Notes: generated from the letters alone by a model not told the origin. Positions 4,113 to 46,093 are shown, numbered from the stretch's first letter. The stretch: DNA of 64,000 bases from Clostridia bacterium (GCA_045593265.1 JAZNWH010000131.1:9422-73421); one strand, 5' to 3'. Made by a program: numbers and translations.

Positions 4113-4651
4113 AAAGTGTTGATTAATAAAAAAACGCTAATCTGTGCGTAGTTCACGGATTACTGCTTGTTTTTTTGTGCAGAAGAAAAAAAGTAAAAAA
4201 TCTGCAAGAATTAAAAAATTGTCGTGATTTTTTATCGTTTGAAGCCGAAAAAATGATGCTTAAAATTGGGTGATATATTTGCTAAAGAAATGCGATAATT
4301 TTCTGTTTTTGTGCTTCCTTTATGCACCGACACTGCCTTATATTTCACCAAAAAAATAATTATATCAGATTATAAATATGATACAAGTTATATGTCTTAT
4401 TTTTATAAAAAACATCGATTATATGTATTGCCTTAATTTTGAAATGATATTATAATTCTAATAATTACGATAACATTTTAATACATCTTGCGTAAGATGT
4501 AGTCTGTAGAAATGTTTCTTGATGATTTGGAGTGTATAGTCGATGGTATATACGAATAAAATGAGCCTCCGGGAAAATATTCCTTGGAGGCTCAAACTAT
4601 TGTATCGTAGATAGAATTGTGATATAATAATAGAGAAATTGTGTTTATTAT

Positions 4652-4776: not shown

Positions 4777-4937
4777 AATGAATTGCCTTCGGCATGAATT
4801 GAAATCATAAATTTCATGAATTGAGCCTATGGCTCATGAATTGCACCTAACGGTCCATTAAGGCAATTCAATTCATGGAGGATGCCGAGAATTCATGATG
4901 GAACATCAATTCACGACAACATAGTTGCCAATTCATT
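4777..4937. repeat. Array of eight short repeats: four direct (C/T)ATGAATTG copies followed by four inverted CAATTCA(T/C) copies.
   Basis: Direct copies at about 4778, 4794, 4817 and 4838. Inverted copies at about 4864, 4889, 4906 and 4928. Each unit overlaps the palindromes TCATGA and GAATTC. Confidence 0.5.
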
Positions 4938-4988: not shown

Positions 4989-5003
4989 TGTGATAAAATC
5001 ACA
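4989..5003 (+). promoter_or_regulatory. Perfect 6-3-6 palindrome TGTGATaaaATCACA, a candidate operator 55 nt upstream of trxB, overlapping a likely -35 and followed by TATAAT at 5018-5023.
   Basis: Exact inverted repeat. The same TGTGAT-N3-ATCACA site occurs upstream of trxA at 8628-8642. Confidence 0.45.
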
Positions 5004-5056
5004 GAAAATAAAAAAACTATAATATATAATAAAACTGACATAGGAAAGGAGCTGAT

Positions 5057-6016
5057 GTGAATATGACAGCTTTGAATAAAGATATAGTTTACGATATGAT
5101 AATAGTTGGTGGAGGTCCGGGAGGATACACATCAGCACTTTATGCTGCAAGAGCCGGATTTAATGTTTTGGTTCTTGAAAAATTTTCAGCAGGCGGACAA
5201 ATGGCGTTGACACATCAAATTGACAATTATCCCGGATTTGAGGATGGAATTGACGGATTCTCGCTTGCTGATAAAATGAAAAAACAGGCGGAACGCTTTG
5301 GTGCAAAAAGTGAAAATTCCGAGGTAATTAAAGTTAATCTTACGGTAAATCCAAAAGAAATAGAAACTGCAAAGGGAACATTTTTATCAAAAACAATCGT
5401 ACTCGCAGCAGGGGCAAACCCAAGAGAGCTTGGTGTTGACAAAGAAAGTGAACTTACAGGACGAGGAGTTGCATACTGTGCCTCCTGTGATGGAATGTTT
5501 TACAGAGGCAAAACTGTTGTTGTGGTTGGTGGAGGAAATACTGCTGCTGCAGATGCAATTCTTCTCAGCCGTATTGCAAAAAAGGTTATTATTGTTCATC
5601 GCAGAGATACCTTGAGAGCAACAAGGATATATCATGAGACTTTAATGAATGCAGAAAATGTGGAGTTTAAATGGGATAGTACGGTTACGGAGCTTCTGCA
5701 TGAAGATAAAATAACAGGGGTTAAGATTAAAAATGTCAAAACAGGAGAAGAAAGTATAATTGATTGTGATGGTGTATTTGTAAGCATAGGCAGAAAGCCT
5801 GCAACTGATTTCCTTGGAGATCAGCCTGAATTGGATGAGAATGGATACATCATTGCAGACGAAACGACAAAGACAAGCATCCCTGGTGTGTATGCCGTTG
5901 GCGATATAAGAACTAAACAGCTACGTCAAGTGGTTACTGCTGTTTCGGATGGTGCAATGGCAGTTCATTCGGCAGAAGAATATCTTGCTGAAGAACATAA
6001 AGGAAGTGAAAAATAA
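5057..6016 (+). CDS. trxB: Thioredoxin-disulfide reductase.
   Basis: GGGPGG FAD motif, redox-active CASCDG, second Rossmann motif VVGGGNTA. The start is ambiguous between GTG 5057 and ATG 5063 (AGGAG at 5047-5051). Confidence 0.85.
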   Translation: MNMTALNKDIVYDMIIVGGGPGGYTSALYAARAGFNVLVLEKFSAGGQMALTHQIDNYPGFEDGIDGFSLADKMKKQAERFGAKSENSEVIKVNLTVNPKEIETAKGTFLSKTIVLAAGANPRELGVDKESELTGRGVAYCASCDGMFYRGKTVVVVGGGNTAAADAILLSRIAKKVIIVHRRDTLRATRIYHETLMNAENVEFKWDSTVTELLHEDKITGVKIKNVKTGEESIIDCDGVFVSIGRKPATDFLGDQPELDENGYIIADETTKTSIPGVYAVGDIRTKQLRQVVTAVSDGAMAVHSAEEYLAEEHKGSEK

Positions 6017-6678
6017 TGCAGTATTTAATATCGTTTCTTGAAGGAATTATCACTTTTATATCGCCTTGCTTACTTCCGATGCTACCCATATACATTTCAT
6101 ATTTTGCAGGCGGAGGCGAAAGAACAACCACAAAAACATTGAACTGTGCTGTCGGCTTTGTAACAGGGTTTACTATTGTTTTTGTAATGCTTGGAGCATT
6201 GGCAGGAACAGTTGGAGGATTCCTTCGTGAATACCAGACAACAGTAAATATCATTTCGGGACTGATTGTGATAATTTTCGGACTGAATTTTCTTGGAGTA
6301 TTTAAGCTGAATATCTTCAAAGGAAATCAGCGCTCTGTTAAAACAGATGATATGGGATTTTTCTCTGCAATGCTTTTGGGAATTATCTTTTCCGTAGGCT
6401 GGACTCCTTGTGTGGGGGCATTTCTTGGCTCTGCATTGATGCTGGCATCTCAGCAAGGTCATATATCAGAGGGAATGCTGATGCTGCTTAGTTATTCCTT
6501 AGGACTTGGCATACCATTTATATTAAGTGCGGTGTTGATTGAATACCTCAAATCGGCATTTAACTGGATTAAGAGAAATTACAAAATCATTAACCTTATA
6601 AGTGGTAGTCTGCTTGTTATAATCGGTATTATGATGGCAACAGGCACACTTGGGCAGCTTTTAAATCTGCTCAGTTAG
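6016..6678 (+). CDS. ccdA: Cytochrome c-type biogenesis / thiol-disulfide transporter CcdA (DsbD beta-domain family).
   Basis: Polytopic membrane protein with the two conserved Cys motifs SPCLLP and WTPCVG. The start overlaps the trxB stop. Confidence 0.8.
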   Translation: MQYLISFLEGIITFISPCLLPMLPIYISYFAGGGERTTTKTLNCAVGFVTGFTIVFVMLGALAGTVGGFLREYQTTVNIISGLIVIIFGLNFLGVFKLNIFKGNQRSVKTDDMGFFSAMLLGIIFSVGWTPCVGAFLGSALMLASQQGHISEGMLMLLSYSLGLGIPFILSAVLIEYLKSAFNWIKRNYKIINLISGSLLVIIGIMMATGTLGQLLNLLS

Positions 6679-6861
6679 GAGGTAACGTGAAAGTTCCTTT
6701 CCCGTTACGCCTCCGGCGGATTTAATTGCCCGTGCGAAAATTTCTTTGCATTTGCAAAGAAACGCACATGGGCGTAATAATCTCTTATCATTCCTTACCA
6801 TGCGGATAAGAGAATTTAATTACTATTTGTGTCGATGTATGGCGGCGGAATGGAGATTACT
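6679..6861 (+). ncRNA. Conserved structured leader RNA (copy A), a candidate cis-regulatory element of unknown class lying between ccdA and the resA-like gene.
   Basis: It is 183 nt and about 80% identical to 32999-33191. P1 is ggaggTAACG...CGTTAcgcctcc. P2 is gcccgtgcg...cgcacatgggc, enclosing a variable hairpin. P3 is tctcttatc...gataagaga, with its loop complementary to the tail just 5' of the SD. It ends with ggcggcggaatGGAGattactATG. Confidence 0.45.
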
Positions 6862-7440
6862 ATGAAAAATAAGAAAACACTAATAATACTTATTCTTGTA
6901 TTTGTTGTTTTGCTCGGTGGTGCGTATATCCTGTACTCTCAGCTTGGTGAGTCGCAGACACCCGATCAGCTATCCATGCAACAACAGGAAAATAATGAAT
7001 CAGGAACAGAGAAGCAAGATAGTCAGAAAACATTAGCACCAGATTTCACAGTTTATGATGCTGACGGAAATGAAGTTAAGCTGCATGACTTTATAGGTAA
7101 GCCAATAGTCCTCAATTTCTGGGCAAGCTGGTGTGGTCCCTGTCAGATGGAAATGCCGGACTTTCACGAAAAATATCTCGAGCTTGGTGATACAATAAAC
7201 TTCCTTATGGTAAATATGACTACCGGACGTGAAACCTTAGAGAGTGCAAAGAATTTTATTGCGGAAAAAGAATACACATTCCCGGTGTTTTATGATATAA
7301 AATCTGATGCTGCTGCAGCATACGGAGCATATTCGCTTCCGACAACATATTTTATTGATGATAGAGGCTATGCTATTGCTCAGGCTACAGGTGCTATTGA
7401 TGGTGAAACTCTTCAGCGTGGAATCGATATGATAAAATAA
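6862..7440 (+). CDS. Membrane-anchored thiol-disulfide oxidoreductase, ResA/TlpA-like extracytoplasmic thioredoxin.
   Basis: N-terminal TM helix then a thioredoxin fold with WASWCGPC. The preferred start is ATG 6862 (GGAGA SD 6 nt upstream). The six-frame ORF starting at 6829 is translated leader sequence. Confidence 0.75.
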   Translation: MKNKKTLIILILVFVVLLGGAYILYSQLGESQTPDQLSMQQQENNESGTEKQDSQKTLAPDFTVYDADGNEVKLHDFIGKPIVLNFWASWCGPCQMEMPDFHEKYLELGDTINFLMVNMTTGRETLESAKNFIAEKEYTFPVFYDIKSDAAAAYGAYSLPTTYFIDDRGYAIAQATGAIDGETLQRGIDMIK

Positions 7441-7444
7441 ACTA

Positions 7445-7478
7445 TCCGCCAGGGACAATCCTCGGCGGAATTTTTTCT
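7445..7478 (+). terminator. Rho-independent terminator after the resA-like gene.
   Basis: tccgccagg-gacaat-cctcggcgga followed by TTTTTT. Confidence 0.6.
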
Positions 7479-7566
7479 GCCATAAAATTGTTTGTTTTGT
7501 TGATTGTATAAATCCAGTTTTTGTGATACAATAAATAAAAAAGATAGATTTACGAGGATAACTATT

Positions 7567-8220
7567 ATGGAATTTCAAAGCTACTTTCCAATATGGGATA
7601 AATTAAATAAAGCAGAGCAAGACCGCATCACAGACAACTTGATTACCAGAAAGGTAACAAAAGGAACTGTAATTCATAACGGCAGTATGGAATGCACAGG
7701 ACTTCTTTTGATAAAAACAGGACAGCTTCGTGCTTATATCCTATCTGATGAAGGCAGAGAAATTACAATCTACCGTCTTTTCGACAGGGATATGTGCTTG
7801 TTTTCAGCCTCTTGTATTATGCGTTCCATTCAGTTTGATATAACAATCGAAGCCGAAAAGGATACCGATTTATGGATTATTCCTGCAGAACTTTACCAGA
7901 GTATTATGAAAGAATCTGCACCCGTTGCCAATTACACAAACGAGCTTATGGCAACAAGATTTTCTGATGTAATGTGGCTGATAGAACAGATTATGTGGAA
8001 GAGTCTTGATAAGCGTCTTGCAGCATTTCTTCTTGAGGAATTTTCTATAGAGGGAACAAAAAAACTAAAGATTACTCACGAAACCATTGCTAATCATCTT
8101 GGCTCTCACCGTGAGGTAATGACGAGAATGCTTAAATATTTCCAAAACGAAGGAATGGTTAAGCTCTCCCGTGGTATGATAGAAATTACAGATTCTGAAA
8201 AACTTGGAAGCTTAAGATAA
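7567..8220 (+). CDS. Crp/Fnr-family transcriptional regulator.
   Basis: N-terminal cNMP-binding beta-barrel, C-terminal HTH (ITHETIANHLGSHREVMTRMLKYFQNEGMV). Start chosen at ATG 7567 with GAGGA RBS. The six-frame ORF extends to 7504. Confidence 0.7.
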   Translation: MEFQSYFPIWDKLNKAEQDRITDNLITRKVTKGTVIHNGSMECTGLLLIKTGQLRAYILSDEGREITIYRLFDRDMCLFSASCIMRSIQFDITIEAEKDTDLWIIPAELYQSIMKESAPVANYTNELMATRFSDVMWLIEQIMWKSLDKRLAAFLLEEFSIEGTKKLKITHETIANHLGSHREVMTRMLKYFQNEGMVKLSRGMIEITDSEKLGSLR

Positions 8221-8224
8221 ATGA

Positions 8225-8260
8225 ATGTCCGCCGATGATGAAATCTGGCGGACATTTTAT
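8225..8260. terminator. Hairpin terminator between convergent crp and trxA, likely bidirectional.
   Basis: atgtccgcc...ggcggacat followed by TTTTAT on the + strand. Flanked by T-rich sequence on the minus strand. Confidence 0.6.
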
Positions 8261-8263
8261 GTT

Positions 8264-8569
8264 TTACAGTAATTCGAGAATTGCGTCTTTCGGTTTTGCT
8301 CCCATTGACTGATTTGTGATTTTGCCATCTTTGATAACTACCAGTGTTGGTATGCTCATAATACCGAACTGTGCTGCAAGCTCTGACTGCTCGTCCACAT
8401 TGACCTTGCCAACTTTGATGTCAGGACGTTCCTCGGCAATTTCCTCTACGATAGGTACTACCATGCGGCAAGGTCCGCACCACGGTGCCCAGAAATCCAA
8501 GAGAACAGGTCTGTCTGAATTTAAAACTTCACTTTGAAAATTGTTTTTATTGATATTTATAGCTGCCAT
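8264..8569 (-). CDS. trxA: Thioredoxin.
   Basis: WAPWCGPC active site. 102 aa from the internal Met preceded by AGGAGG at 8-nt spacing. The six-frame ORF extends to 8677 through non-coding leader. Confidence 0.85.
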   Translation of the reverse strand: MAAININKNNFQSEVLNSDRPVLLDFWAPWCGPCRMVVPIVEEIAEERPDIKVGKVNVDEQSELAAQFGIMSIPTLVVIKDGKITNQSMGAKPKDAILELL

Positions 8570-8627
8570 ATTGTTATCCTCCTTTTTCTTTTGTGTCTTT
8601 ATACTACCACAACTTTTTATGTTTTTC

Positions 8628-8642
8628 TGTGATATTATCACA
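8628..8642. promoter_or_regulatory. Perfect palindrome TGTGATattATCACA about 60 nt upstream of the trxA start, the same operator architecture as upstream of trxB.
   Basis: Exact 6-3-6 inverted repeat lying in the trxA promoter region. Confidence 0.45.
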
Positions 8643-8724
8643 TAAAACACATATAATCCCGTAACAAAATATGACATACTTTAAATAAAGAAAAGGGACA
8701 TTCAATTTTGGGCAAAAAATAAGA

Positions 8725-9152: not shown

Positions 9153-10118
9153 TTAGAGTAATTGTTCTTTAATAATCTTTACAAGATTTTTGCTTACGGT
9201 TTTATGTCCTTTTCTGTCAGGGTGGAGTGGCTCAGGGTTTATCCATCCTGTTGTATTTATGTAGAATACATTGTCGCTGTTTTTACTGTTATATGTGTCT
9301 GTAACCATTTTGATTTCTTCTGCTAAGCAGCCTGAAAAAGGTGTTAATGCTATTATTTGGGATTTTGGGTTTCTTTTTCTTACAAGACACAAAAATTCAA
9401 AATATTTTTTCTTAAATAAATCTTTATCATTTTTTCTGTCATTGGTTCCGTGGTTAATGACAATAATATCTGCATTCTGACTTTCCATTGGAAAACCATC
9501 GCTATAGTATGGGTAAGATTCTTCGGCTGGAGGAACATTTCCTGCTCCGCCTTTGGTTGTACCAAGGCATCCGTAGCCCATAACAACAGGACGGAAATTA
9601 AGGGATTTTGCTGTAAGATATGCATATCCTGCTGTTGAATCGTCCCAATAAACCATATCTCTGCTGTCCTGATAATTTGAATACTTAGTATCTATAGAAA
9701 TACCTTCTGTTATTGAATCACCTATAAATTCTATAACAGGTCTGGTGTCTTTAGGGAGTGGGCAGAATCCTTCGGCTTCTATTGAAACAAGAGAAACTTT
9801 AGCTTCTATAGGATTAAGCCATCTGTTCTGCGTTTCCATAGAGCTTTTCATCGTTACGCAAACTTTGTGTTTTCCTGATTCAGCAGAAATTCTTATAAAT
9901 TTGTCAAGAGTAACTTCAATGTTGGCTCCATTGTCTACATTTATGTAAATATGAGGGTAGGGAATTTGGTTTTCTGATATATCAAATTCGATTACAGCAC
10001 ATTCTCCTTCGTACATAAATTCAAAATAGCTTCCGTTGGCTGTAGATACAGACGCAGCCGTGGTAATGTTCCAGCGGCCTGTATACCTTATTTGGTTGTC
10101 GTCGTGTTTTATAATCAT
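9153..10118 (-). CDS. SGNH/GDSL hydrolase with an N-terminal beta-sandwich domain, similar to carbohydrate esterase family 2 (candidate acetyl-xylan or acetyl-mannan esterase).
   Basis: GDSITEG block I and GTND block III. N-terminal jelly-roll-like domain of about 120 aa. No signal peptide. Confidence 0.55.
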   Translation of the reverse strand: MIIKHDDNQIRYTGRWNITTAASVSTANGSYFEFMYEGECAVIEFDISENQIPYPHIYINVDNGANIEVTLDKFIRISAESGKHKVCVTMKSSMETQNRWLNPIEAKVSLVSIEAEGFCPLPKDTRPVIEFIGDSITEGISIDTKYSNYQDSRDMVYWDDSTAGYAYLTAKSLNFRPVVMGYGCLGTTKGGAGNVPPAEESYPYYSDGFPMESQNADIIVINHGTNDRKNDKDLFKKKYFEFLCLVRKRNPKSQIIALTPFSGCLAEEIKMVTDTYNSKNSDNVFYINTTGWINPEPLHPDRKGHKTVSKNLVKIIKEQLL

Positions 10119-45076: not shown

Positions 45077-46093
45077 ATGCTTACAAAACCCATATTTTTT
45101 GAAAAAAACAGAGTAGGAAGAGTTTACACAGGAGGCAAGCTTTTTTGTAATTTTTTTGGTGATGACAGCACCGATGGATTTTTCCCGGAAGAATGGATTG
45201 CATCAAGTGTAAAGGCGGTTAACAAAGTGCAGGCATCTGAAAAAGAAGGTGTTTCAAAGCTTGCTGACAGCGATATATATTTTGATGAGCTTATTGAAAA
45301 ATACCCATTTGAAATGCTCGGAAGCTCAGAAAAAATGCGTATTCTTGTAAAGCTTCTTGACAGTGCGGTGCGTCTTCCTGCTCAGGCGCATCCTGATAAA
45401 GAGTTTTCAAGAAAATATTTTAATTCAGAATATGGCAAGACCGAGAGCTGGATTGTTCTTGACAAAAGAGAAAATGCCAAAATCTATTTCGGGTTCAAAG
45501 ACAATGTTAACGAAGAAATATTTTCAAAGGCAATAGACGAAAGCGAAACAGATAAAGATGCAATGGAACGCATTATGGAGTATACCGAGCCTGAAATTGG
45601 TGATGTTATTTTAGTTCCTGCAAAAACAGTACACGCTATAGGTGCCGGCTGTCTTATTTTGGAGGTTCAGGAGCCTACAGATTTTACAATTCAGCCGGAG
45701 CATTGGTGCGATGAATATAAGTTAAACGAAAAAGAAATGTATATGAATTTATCCCGTGAAACTGCGGTGAAGTGTTTTGACTTTAAAAAATCATCCGACC
45801 CAAGAATAGCCCCTGAGGTAATCTTTAACAAAGACGGGGTAAAAATCGAACACCTTATAAAGCCTTGCGATACGGAGTGTTTTGTTATTAACAGAATAAC
45901 CCTTGAGGGCGGAAATGTTTGTATAAACCTTAAGGATAGCTATGGTGTTTATATCGTGACTGACGGCGAAGGTGAAATTTCAGGTGAAGGGTATGAGAAA
46001 AAAATAAAAAAAGGCGATTATTTCTTTATGCCTTGCTGTGCTATGGGGAAATTCAGCATCAATGGAAATGTTCAGGTAGTAGAGTGTTATTGA
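45077..46093 (+). CDS. manA: Mannose-6-phosphate isomerase, class I (cupin).
   Basis: QAHPDK zinc-ligand motif, TESWIVLD, collinear with Bacillus-type PMI. Start ATG 45077 after TAGGAG. The six-frame ORF begins at 45041. Confidence 0.75.
   Translation: MLTKPIFFEKNRVGRVYTGGKLFCNFFGDDSTDGFFPEEWIASSVKAVNKVQASEKEGVSKLADSDIYFDELIEKYPFEMLGSSEKMRILVKLLDSAVRLPAQAHPDKEFSRKYFNSEYGKTESWIVLDKRENAKIYFGFKDNVNEEIFSKAIDESETDKDAMERIMEYTEPEIGDVILVPAKTVHAIGAGCLILEVQEPTDFTIQPEHWCDEYKLNEKEMYMNLSRETAVKCFDFKKSSDPRIAPEVIFNKDGVKIEHLIKPCDTECFVINRITLEGGNVCINLKDSYGVYIVTDGEGEISGEGYEKKIKKGDYFFMPCCAMGKFSINGNVQVVECY

Follow-up and report, generated by a model that had tools for sequence, protein, structure and literature searches.

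Paired palindromes at the trxB and trxA promoters of a Clostridia bacterium: probable operators of a conserved thiol-redox regulon and their candidate three-cysteine Crp/Fnr-family regulator

The trxB and trxA locus

The window (the whole 64-kb stretch of DNA analyzed here) carries a group of thioredoxin-system genes beside a gene for a Crp/Fnr-family regulator. On the plus strand, trxB (5057..6016, starting at GTG 5057 or ATG 5063) encodes an NADPH-type thioredoxin reductase, which scored 381.7 bits against the equivalog TIGR01292 (cut-off 343) and contains GGGNTA (GxGxxA) and HRRDTLR (HRRxxxR) for NADPH as well as CASC. It is followed by a ccdA-like gene for a membrane thiol-disulfide electron transporter (CcdA/DsbD_TM; 6016..6678, plus strand; PF02683, E = 1.2e-22) and by tlpA (6829..7440, plus strand; PF00578, PF08534, NF002854), whose product is a ResA/TlpA-like membrane-anchored thioredoxin-fold redoxin with a CGPC motif. 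The regulator, of 217 aa, is encoded at 7567..8220 on the plus strand (PF13545, PF00027, PF00325), and trxA, for a WCGPC thioredoxin (TIGR01068, 124 bits against a cut-off of 96.8), occupies 8264..8569 on the minus strand. A sequence-only reading of this stretch had already named trxB and trxA, and both identities held up in profile searches. Based on established knowledge of these families, the operon can be read as a full electron path, from NADPH through TrxB, TrxA, and CcdA to the extracytoplasmic TlpA-like protein.

The sequence-only reading had also placed the regulator gene inside the trxB operon, and here our analysis suggests otherwise. A terminator-like hairpin, tCCGCCaGGG...CCTcGGCGGa followed by TTTTTT, can be read 3' of tlpA (~7445..7476, plus strand). 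Beyond it lies a candidate promoter of the regulator gene's own (7504..7532, plus strand), of sigma-A type, with TTGTAT at 7504-7509 and TGaTACAAT at 7524-7532 at a spacing of 17 nt. Because both elements stand between tlpA and the regulator gene, the latter is probably transcribed independently, as a separate unit beside the trxB operon.

Two palindromes of the form TGTGAT-N3-ATCACA occur in the window, one 5' of trxB-ccdA-tlpA and one 5' of the divergent trxA. There are exactly two such matches in 64 kb, against 0.04 expected from dinucleotide-preserving shuffles (0 of 100 shuffles reached two). The only exact matches to TGTGATNNNATCACA in the window are TGTGATAAAATCACA at 4989-5003 and TGTGATATTATCACA at 8628-8642. 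The first putative operator, TGTGATaaaATCACA (4989..5003, plus strand, centered at 4996), points toward trxB and is kept at orthologous trxB promoters. The second, TGTGATaatATCACA in its minus-strand reading (8628..8642, centered at 8635), points toward trxA and has a counterpart 5' of trxA in 42 loci, where the median distance from its center to the start codon is 66 nt. Allowing two mismatches in the window scan gave no gain over chance, and the window sites with one or two mismatches (9705-9721, 45155-45175, 53608, and 59238) lacked supporting context.

Both sites overlap the -35 region of a putative promoter. On the trxB side, a GAA flank (5004..5006, plus strand) lies at +8 to +10 from the palindrome center, or about -33 to -31, and is the remnant of a -35 hexamer, with CAGAAA at 5002-5007. 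The putative -10 box TATAAT (5025..5030, plus strand) begins 29 nt past the center, and transcription of trxB is predicted to start near 5037. On the trxA side, the GAA flank is found in the sequence at 8625..8627 (minus strand) and a putative extended -10, TGgTAGTAT, at 8601..8609 (minus strand), with its hexamer TAGTAT (8606..8601) again 29 nt from the center and a predicted start near 8594. Most of the earlier description of these sites was accurate: it had reported perfect 15-bp palindromes at 4989-5003 and 8628-8642, and both are there; it had put them about 55-60 nt upstream of the start codons, where we measured 54-60 nt from site edge to start for trxB and 59 nt for trxA; and the overlap with a likely -35 that it had noted for the trxB site is seen at both promoters.

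The region 5' of the trxB site is unusually long and free of ORFs (945 bp), and it holds two further features. The 8-mer ATGAATTG forms an array at 4778-4936, with direct copies at 4778, 4794, 4816, and 4836 (spacing ~20 nt), exact or near reverse-complement copies at 4869 and 4929, and degenerate ones near 4890 and 4908. Six of the seven exact copies in the entire window fall in this array, which close relatives lack at the orthologous position. The second feature, a strong inverted repeat (GAGCCTCC ... GGAGGCTC) at 4555-4601, has no Rfam match; it could serve as a terminator or belong to a small structured element.

Conservation, spacing, and promoter geometry

The regulator has thousands of close homologs. 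We scanned orthologs using one genome per species, which gave 80 loci with orthologs 72-98% identical to the window protein, distributed among Oscillospiraceae, Acutalibacteraceae, Lachnospiraceae (Blautia, Acetatifactor, Eisenbergiella, and [Ruminococcus] faecis), Christensenellales, Butyricicoccus, Lawsonibacter, and Faecalibacterium. Within 945 kb of sequence surrounding the orthologous genes, we counted 35 exact and 33 one-mismatch copies of the motif over its 12 defined positions, and in nearly all of them the center lies 60-70 nt 5' of a trxA or trxB start codon. A position weight matrix (PWM) scan of the same surroundings returned 131 matches, compared with 5-14 in shuffled sequence. 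It also showed that higher-GC relatives carry CGTGAT-N3-ATCACG or GGTGAT-N3-ATCACG, so the core is GTGAT-N3-ATCAC and the outermost T/A is optional.

The spacing of the half-sites is strict. In ~1.0 Mb around regulator genes, GTGAT-N3-ATCAC occurs 83 times, while every other spacing from N0 to N8 yields 0-1 copies and the CRP-like N4 yields none; we thus found no alternative spacing among N0-N8 in that sequence. The sequence-only reading had called the center shorter than canonical, and the 83 N3 sites against zero N4 sites put the difference at one bp. Among 36 non-redundant trxA/trxB promoters, the central three bases favor R-W-Y, which places the dyad axis through a base pair and gives a symmetric consensus of (T/c/g)GTGAT-RWY-ATCAC(A/g). 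Taken together, the shuffles, the counts at ortholog loci, the PWM scan, and the spacing counts exclude a chance origin of the palindromes.

The association between motif and regulator persists across the 80 species despite rearranged gene order. Close relatives keep the layout trxB-ccdA-tlpA-crp with trxA convergent. In relatives at ~82% identity, the regulator gene is divergent from a desulfoferrodoxin-trxA-trxB-ccdA-tlpA operon, and the site lies 66 nt 5' of a paralogous trxA. At many other loci, the regulator gene is convergent with a site-headed operon, composed either of trxA, rhodanese, and a CoA-disulfide-reductase-like gene with rhodanese or of ferredoxin, membrane protein, rhodanese, and reductase genes. 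No second regulator gene with consistent linkage was found across 85 loci. Since the comparative loci were mostly picked through the regulator gene, their co-occurrence with the motif is biased; a regulator-blind scan, described below, corrects for this in part, its contigs being mostly short.

Several candidate targets were rejected based on site orientation. Autoregulation is not indicated: at the 14-15 sites near a divergent crp gene, a -10 at +29 on the crp side is present in 0 of 15, and the GAA points away. A shared site turns its non-promoter side to the desulfoferrodoxin genes of L006-L012, and likewise to the genes for Mn-catalase (L059), for MsrAB (L018), and for an unknown protein of 146 aa. 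Among desulfoferrodoxin genes, the site is properly oriented for some only (L057, L092, and L178).

Some loci carry additional features. Oscillibacter sp. PC13 (L018) has two regulator paralogs ~1.4 kb apart (5937-6584 and 8001-8648), which are 60% and 82% identical to the window protein and one of which adjoins a trxA-trxB-ccdA-tlpA operon; sites there are at 5302, 7936, 12207/12214, 13061, 15528, and 16047. A conserved polytopic membrane protein of 191 aa, which has several cysteines (CxxYC, CVYCP) and matches no Pfam family significantly (L075:10763-11338, with relatives in L062, L070, L078, and L084), is encoded between the small ferredoxin and the rhodanese/CoA-disulfide-reductase-like (CoADR) genes of the regulated operon. 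In the relatives at 93% identity (L004/L005:7646-12660), clustered defense- and toxin-type genes (Fic, DUF6088, AbiEii, SMEK_N/CTD10, and DUF2326) lie directly downstream of the trxA promoter region.

We aligned the 36 non-redundant trxA/trxB promoters on the palindrome center. G-6, T-5, G-4, and A-3 on one arm and A+2, T+3, C+4, A+5, and C+6 on the other are invariant. The GAA is present on one side only (G+8 and A+9 in 36/36, A+10 in 35/36), and TATAAT stands at +29 to +34 (T in 35, A in 36, T in 31, A in 28, A in 32, and T in 36 of the 36). The -35 window reads CAGAAA, a poor hexamer with 2-3 matches out of 6, and for this reason we regard the GAA as what remains of TTGACA. A G is found at +27 in 29 of the 36 promoters, and a full TG extended -10 in 15-20.

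Weighing of alternatives, headed by ALTERNATIVES, covered an RNA hairpin, Rex, Fur/PerR boxes, repression, and a different binder. It is extremely improbable that the palindromes arose by chance, or that they work as RNA hairpins (attenuator or terminator) and not as DNA operators. A 6-bp stem with a 3-nt loop could form at -4.3 kcal/mol (z = -2.3 to -3.3). However, this is a weak fold, a search of Rfam returned no family, and a hairpin or riboswitch was rejected as a reading. The arms are kept as sequence, with no compensatory changes, and the variant CGTGAT...ATCACA breaks the outer pair. Moreover, the site lies 5' of the conserved -10 box and would therefore not be transcribed.

The distance from site to -10 box is fixed well beyond the thioredoxin genes. 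The palindrome center lies exactly 29 nt 5' of the hexamer in at least nine non-orthologous promoter families, including trxA, trxB, ferredoxin, rhodanese, CoA-disulfide-reductase-like, SDR, and rubredoxin-domain protein genes. A -10 at +29 is present in 13 of 13 trxB and 37 of 46 trxA promoters (4 further at +/-1), 10 of 11 for ferredoxin, 8 of 10 for SDR, 6 of 7 for rhodanese, and 5 of 5 each for a small Cys-rich protein and a rubredoxin-domain (rubrerythrin-like) protein. Assuming that transcription starts ~7 nt past the hexamer, the palindrome center falls at about -41. This geometry would match the class II arrangement of Crp/Fnr activators, with the site in place of a proper -35 element.

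Repression by the same protein is the main rival to activation. The reduced regulator would cover the -35 and block RNA polymerase, and oxidation of its cysteines or of a cluster would release it, de-repressing the thioredoxin genes much as is the case for PerR or Rex. The overlap of the site with the -35 window CAGAAA fits such a scheme, as does the TG of many promoters (G at +27 in ~29 of 36, full extended -10 in 15-20 of 36), by which they could work without an activator. Oxidative-stress genes of Clostridium acetobutylicum, which are under the repressor PerR, offer a parallel. Against this, base-exact spacing across unrelated promoters is required by class II Crp/Fnr activation and not by simple repression, and it is the constant offset in at least nine non-orthologous families that forms our main argument for an activator. 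The -35 hexamer is also poor (2-3 of 6 matches), and Crp/Fnr proteins at -41.5 are classically activators. We consider repression unlikely, and the promoter geometry argues for activation.

The regulator-blind scan searched a public metagenome collection for the pattern ATGTGATNNNATCACAGAA and matched at least 120 stretches. Matches were classed as promoter-type when the hexamer at +29 agreed with TATAAT in five or more of its 6 positions; among the matches listed, 48 had such a box and 72 did not. A check for enrichment of the motif upstream of redox genes had been proposed along with the sequence-only reading, and on these metagenomes the enrichment is strong: among the matches listed, a thiol-redox gene follows in 30 of 48 cases with the box compared with 7 of 72 without it (odds ratio 15.5, Fisher P = 1e-9). 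The 30 downstream genes in this list are mostly trxA, at 70-82% identity, and some of the remaining downstream ORFs listed are also redox-related (CoADR-like, rubredoxin-domain, and hemerythrin). A crp ortholog lies on the same stretch in 12 of the 48 listed matches with the box and 1 of the 72 without it (P = 6e-5). The exact metagenome matches listed are therefore roughly half background and half promoters of one coherent gene set. In proposing a local redox regulon, the sequence-only reading was right about redox, given this gene set, and wrong about local, as the regulon is wider.

Further promoter-type sites precede a gene for a 205-aa protein that carries a rubredoxin-like domain at each terminus (PF21349; L096, L105, L125, L159, and L164), a gene for a hemerythrin-domain protein (L170), and stand-alone CoA-disulfide-reductase-like genes (L095, L088, and L166). 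These three kinds of target came from the blind scan and were not encountered beside the regulator.

The candidate regulator and a proposed mechanism

By its domain content, the protein encoded at 7567-8220 belongs to the Crp/Fnr superfamily. It has an N-terminal cNMP-binding-like beta-roll (PF00027, 33.4 bits against a cut-off of 27.5, residues 28-116) and a C-terminal Crp-type helix-turn-helix (PF13545, E = 2.2e-15; PF00325, E = 1.8e-6). It reached none of the NCBIfam cut-offs for CRP, FNR, NtcA, and FtrB, and its scores and sensor residues set it apart from CRP, FNR, NtcA, CooA, and every other curated subfamily. A search of 1.84 billion cluster representatives gave 363 relatives at E < 1e-30. 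An alignment of E. coli CRP and FNR with 90 full-length representatives (36-58% identity) showed conservation of 90% or more, among these 90, at only 19 positions.

The conserved residues include those of the recognition helix, SHREVMTR. Its R182, E183, and R187 align with CRP R180, E181, and R185 and are kept, as R-E-x-x-x-R, in 84-88 of the 90 distant relatives. In CRP, these residues read GTGA; FNR has Val in the first position (V208) and reads TTGA. A CRP-type helix therefore predicts the GTGA half-site that is observed, which agrees with the earlier description of the half-site as CRP/FNR-like. The DNA encoding the helix, CGTGAGGTCATCAC (R-E-V-I-T), itself resembles the operator, at 13.8-16.8 bits in the PWM (L022-L059; e.g. 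L024:8543-8559). Matches here and in the CoADR gene were judged to be conserved coding sequence and set aside, as they read GTGAG and not GTGAT; the resemblance is probably a coincidence.

The only cysteines of the regulator, C43, C77, and C83, are kept in 84-87 of the 90 relatives (~95%), down to 36% identity, and C77 and C83 flank the segment that aligns with the ligand-binding loop of CRP. This triad suggests a thiol-disulfide switch or a three-Cys Fe-S or metal site. The same three cysteines are present in the crystal structure 3DV8, which matches the regulator at E = 1e-115 and whose title names only a Crp/Fnr-family transcriptional regulator, with no function assigned. The 3DV8 clade is very abundant in human-gut data, where its 90%-identity clusters hold 3,778 and 25,610 sequences; the larger carries the name Anaerobutyricum hallii. 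Upstream of trxA (or trxA-CoADR), an A. hallii genome and one further relative have TGTGATGATATCACA-GAA or GGTGATGTTATCACA-GAA with TATAAT at +29, and the clade shares the operator-promoter architecture. The structure is that of a Eubacterium rectale protein (PMC6955866).

The palindromes are very probably read by this adjacent three-cysteine regulator. The sequence-only reading had named it as the obvious candidate binder, and the candidacy gains from the motif's travelling with the regulator gene in 80 species. Alternatively, the sites could be true operators of another protein (Rex, a PerR/Fur-type factor with a 7-1-7 site, or an unidentified one), with the Crp/Fnr gene a mere neighbor or co-regulated target. 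An odd-length 7-1-7 dyad is typical of Fur-family boxes, and in divergent arrangements the sites face away from the crp gene, both of which would suit this alternative. The individual candidates fit poorly, however. The Rex consensus, TTGTGAA-N4-TTCACAA, is 18 bp long and has an A adjoining GTGA; at our sites, position -2 is T in 32 and C in 4 of the 36 promoters, with A in none, and the half-sites stand one base closer together. A Rex operator, whose consensus the sequence-only reading had also quoted, was accordingly rejected. The PerR consensus TTATAAT-N-ATTATAA is likewise unmatched; the arms are TGTGATR/YATCACA with invariant G and C positions and do not follow the TnATAAT-N-ATTATnA of a Fur/PerR 7-1-7 box, which was rejected as well. 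In addition, the regulator's helix holds the GTGA-reading R-E-x-x-x-R triad, no alternative regulator gene is consistently linked across 85 loci, and a crp ortholog accompanies promoter-type sites in 12 of 48 against 1 of 72 of the blind-scan matches listed. We judge a different binder to be quite improbable.

The motif with its spacing and orientation, its distance to the -10 box, the linked genes including that of the regulator, and the conserved residues were all observed; from them we infer that the protein binds, where transcription starts, that it is activated and not repressed, and what kind of signal is sensed. Our preferred reading, which we consider likely, is that both palindromes are operators of a conserved thiol-redox/oxidant-defense regulon and are most likely bound by the regulator encoded at 7567-8220, acting as a class II activator. 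A regulator dimer would sit at about -41, in place of a proper -35 element, and in its active form would bring RNA polymerase to the promoters of trxB-ccdA-tlpA and trxA. Its targets in relatives would further include ferredoxin-rhodanese-CoA-disulfide-reductase-like operons and SDR genes, with rubredoxin-domain proteins and some superoxide reductase genes as further putative targets. The signal is probably sensed by the three near-invariant cysteines of the effector domain, which may form a thiol-disulfide switch or coordinate an Fe-S or metal center. An oxidized cell would in this way switch its reducing machinery on.

More tentatively, this three-Cys subfamily may be a master sensor of oxidants, disulfides, or reactive sulfur in the dominant strictly anaerobic gut and rumen Clostridia, namely Oscillospiraceae, Faecalibacterium, and Lachnospiraceae (among them the groups of Anaerobutyricum, Blautia, and E. 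rectale). Through a shortened operator, it would switch on the genes for thioredoxin, CcdA-TlpA, rhodanese, superoxide reductase, and CoA-disulfide/persulfide reductase, and could hold the role played elsewhere by OxyR, Spx, or PerR. We regard this broader proposal as possible, with somewhat less confidence than would favor it outright.

A description of the motif or regulon was not found in the literature we searched, whose coverage leaves out most subscription journals and regulon databases. In C. difficile, thioredoxin has been placed under sigma-B and sigma-A control, with Crp unmentioned (PMC10880999). The results point to a candidate oxidant- or thiol-stress switch in strict anaerobes that has not been described. 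Little is understood of how gut commensals that are strict anaerobes detect oxygen or disulfide stress and regulate thiol reduction, and the question bears on commensal survival in the inflamed gut and on live-biotherapeutic production. The proposed circuit is testable, consisting of a 15-17 bp operator, a set promoter geometry, and a candidate three-Cys sensor with a crystal structure, 3DV8. The predicted regulon is found again in 80 species and in human-gut protein clusters that are very abundant. Provided that the regulator binds as proposed, the odd-length dyad would extend the known geometry of DNA recognition in the Crp/Fnr family.

Comparison with known systems

A close parallel in promoter layout is E. 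coli CRP at class II promoters. CRP has the same two-domain architecture, GTGAT/ATCAC half-sites, and aligned R-E-x-x-x-R residues. Its site, TGTGA-N6-TCACA, is centered at -41.5, and the site here lies ~41 nt 5' of the putative start, where it would likewise replace the -35. The center differs, being N4 in CRP (GTGAT-N4-ATCAC) and strictly N3 here, with a dyad axis through a base. Our operator is symmetric, but it reads TGTGA-N5-TCACA and departs from the canonical even spacing of TGTGA-N6-TCACA or TTGAT-N4-ATCAA. To our knowledge, the half-sites lie one bp closer than in any Crp/Fnr site, and we infer the docking of a Crp-type dimer there. The regulator scores 34.9 bits against the CRP equivalog NF008732 (cut-off 266), and its C43, C77, and C83 align to Ala, a gap, and Leu in CRP. 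Finally, CRP governs carbon catabolism, in contrast to the thiol-redox regulon here.

FNR belongs to the same superfamily and gave the best non-orthologous PDB and NCBIfam match to the regulator. It, too, has a redox-linked output through cysteine-dependent sensing and acts at class II promoters. However, its [4Fe-4S] cysteines C20, C23, C29, and C122 have no counterparts in the regulator, which lacks the N-terminal Cys cluster; opposite C43, C77, and C83, FNR has L, V, and G. The score against NF008365 is 45.8 bits, compared with a cut-off of 228. The recognition helix has R where FNR has V208, giving GTGA and not the TTGA of the FNR site TTGAT-N4-ATCAA. The output genes also suggest that the regulator is active under oxidizing conditions, unlike FNR, which is active when oxygen is absent.

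Thiol-disulfide switches, in which DNA binding is governed by reversible oxidation of cysteines, are found in two other Crp/Fnr members, FLP of Lactobacillus casei and CprK. These two differ from the regulator in the positions and numbers of their cysteines, in their regulons, and in their sites (CCTGA-N4-TCAGG and TTAAT-N4-ATTAA). PgRsp of Porphyromonas gingivalis is a heme-binding, oxidative-stress-linked protein that was modelled on 3DV8 (PMC6955866). It is distantly related, with a Cys at position 76, close to C77 of the regulator; it is reported to bind heme, and no DNA site is defined for it.

In other phyla, trxA and trxB are switched on by the thiol-based activators Spx, OxyR, and sigmaR-RsrA, which come from unrelated protein families and make unrelated contacts to DNA or RNA polymerase. 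The logic proposed here is nonetheless like theirs: an oxidant-sensing Cys switch would turn on the thioredoxin system, which in turn could reset the sensor. The predicted regulon is also similar to what OxyR, Spx, and sigmaR-RsrA control: it comprises the thioredoxin system, reducing-power export, a CoA-disulfide/persulfide-type reductase, rhodaneses, ferredoxin, a rubredoxin-domain protein, and some superoxide reductases.
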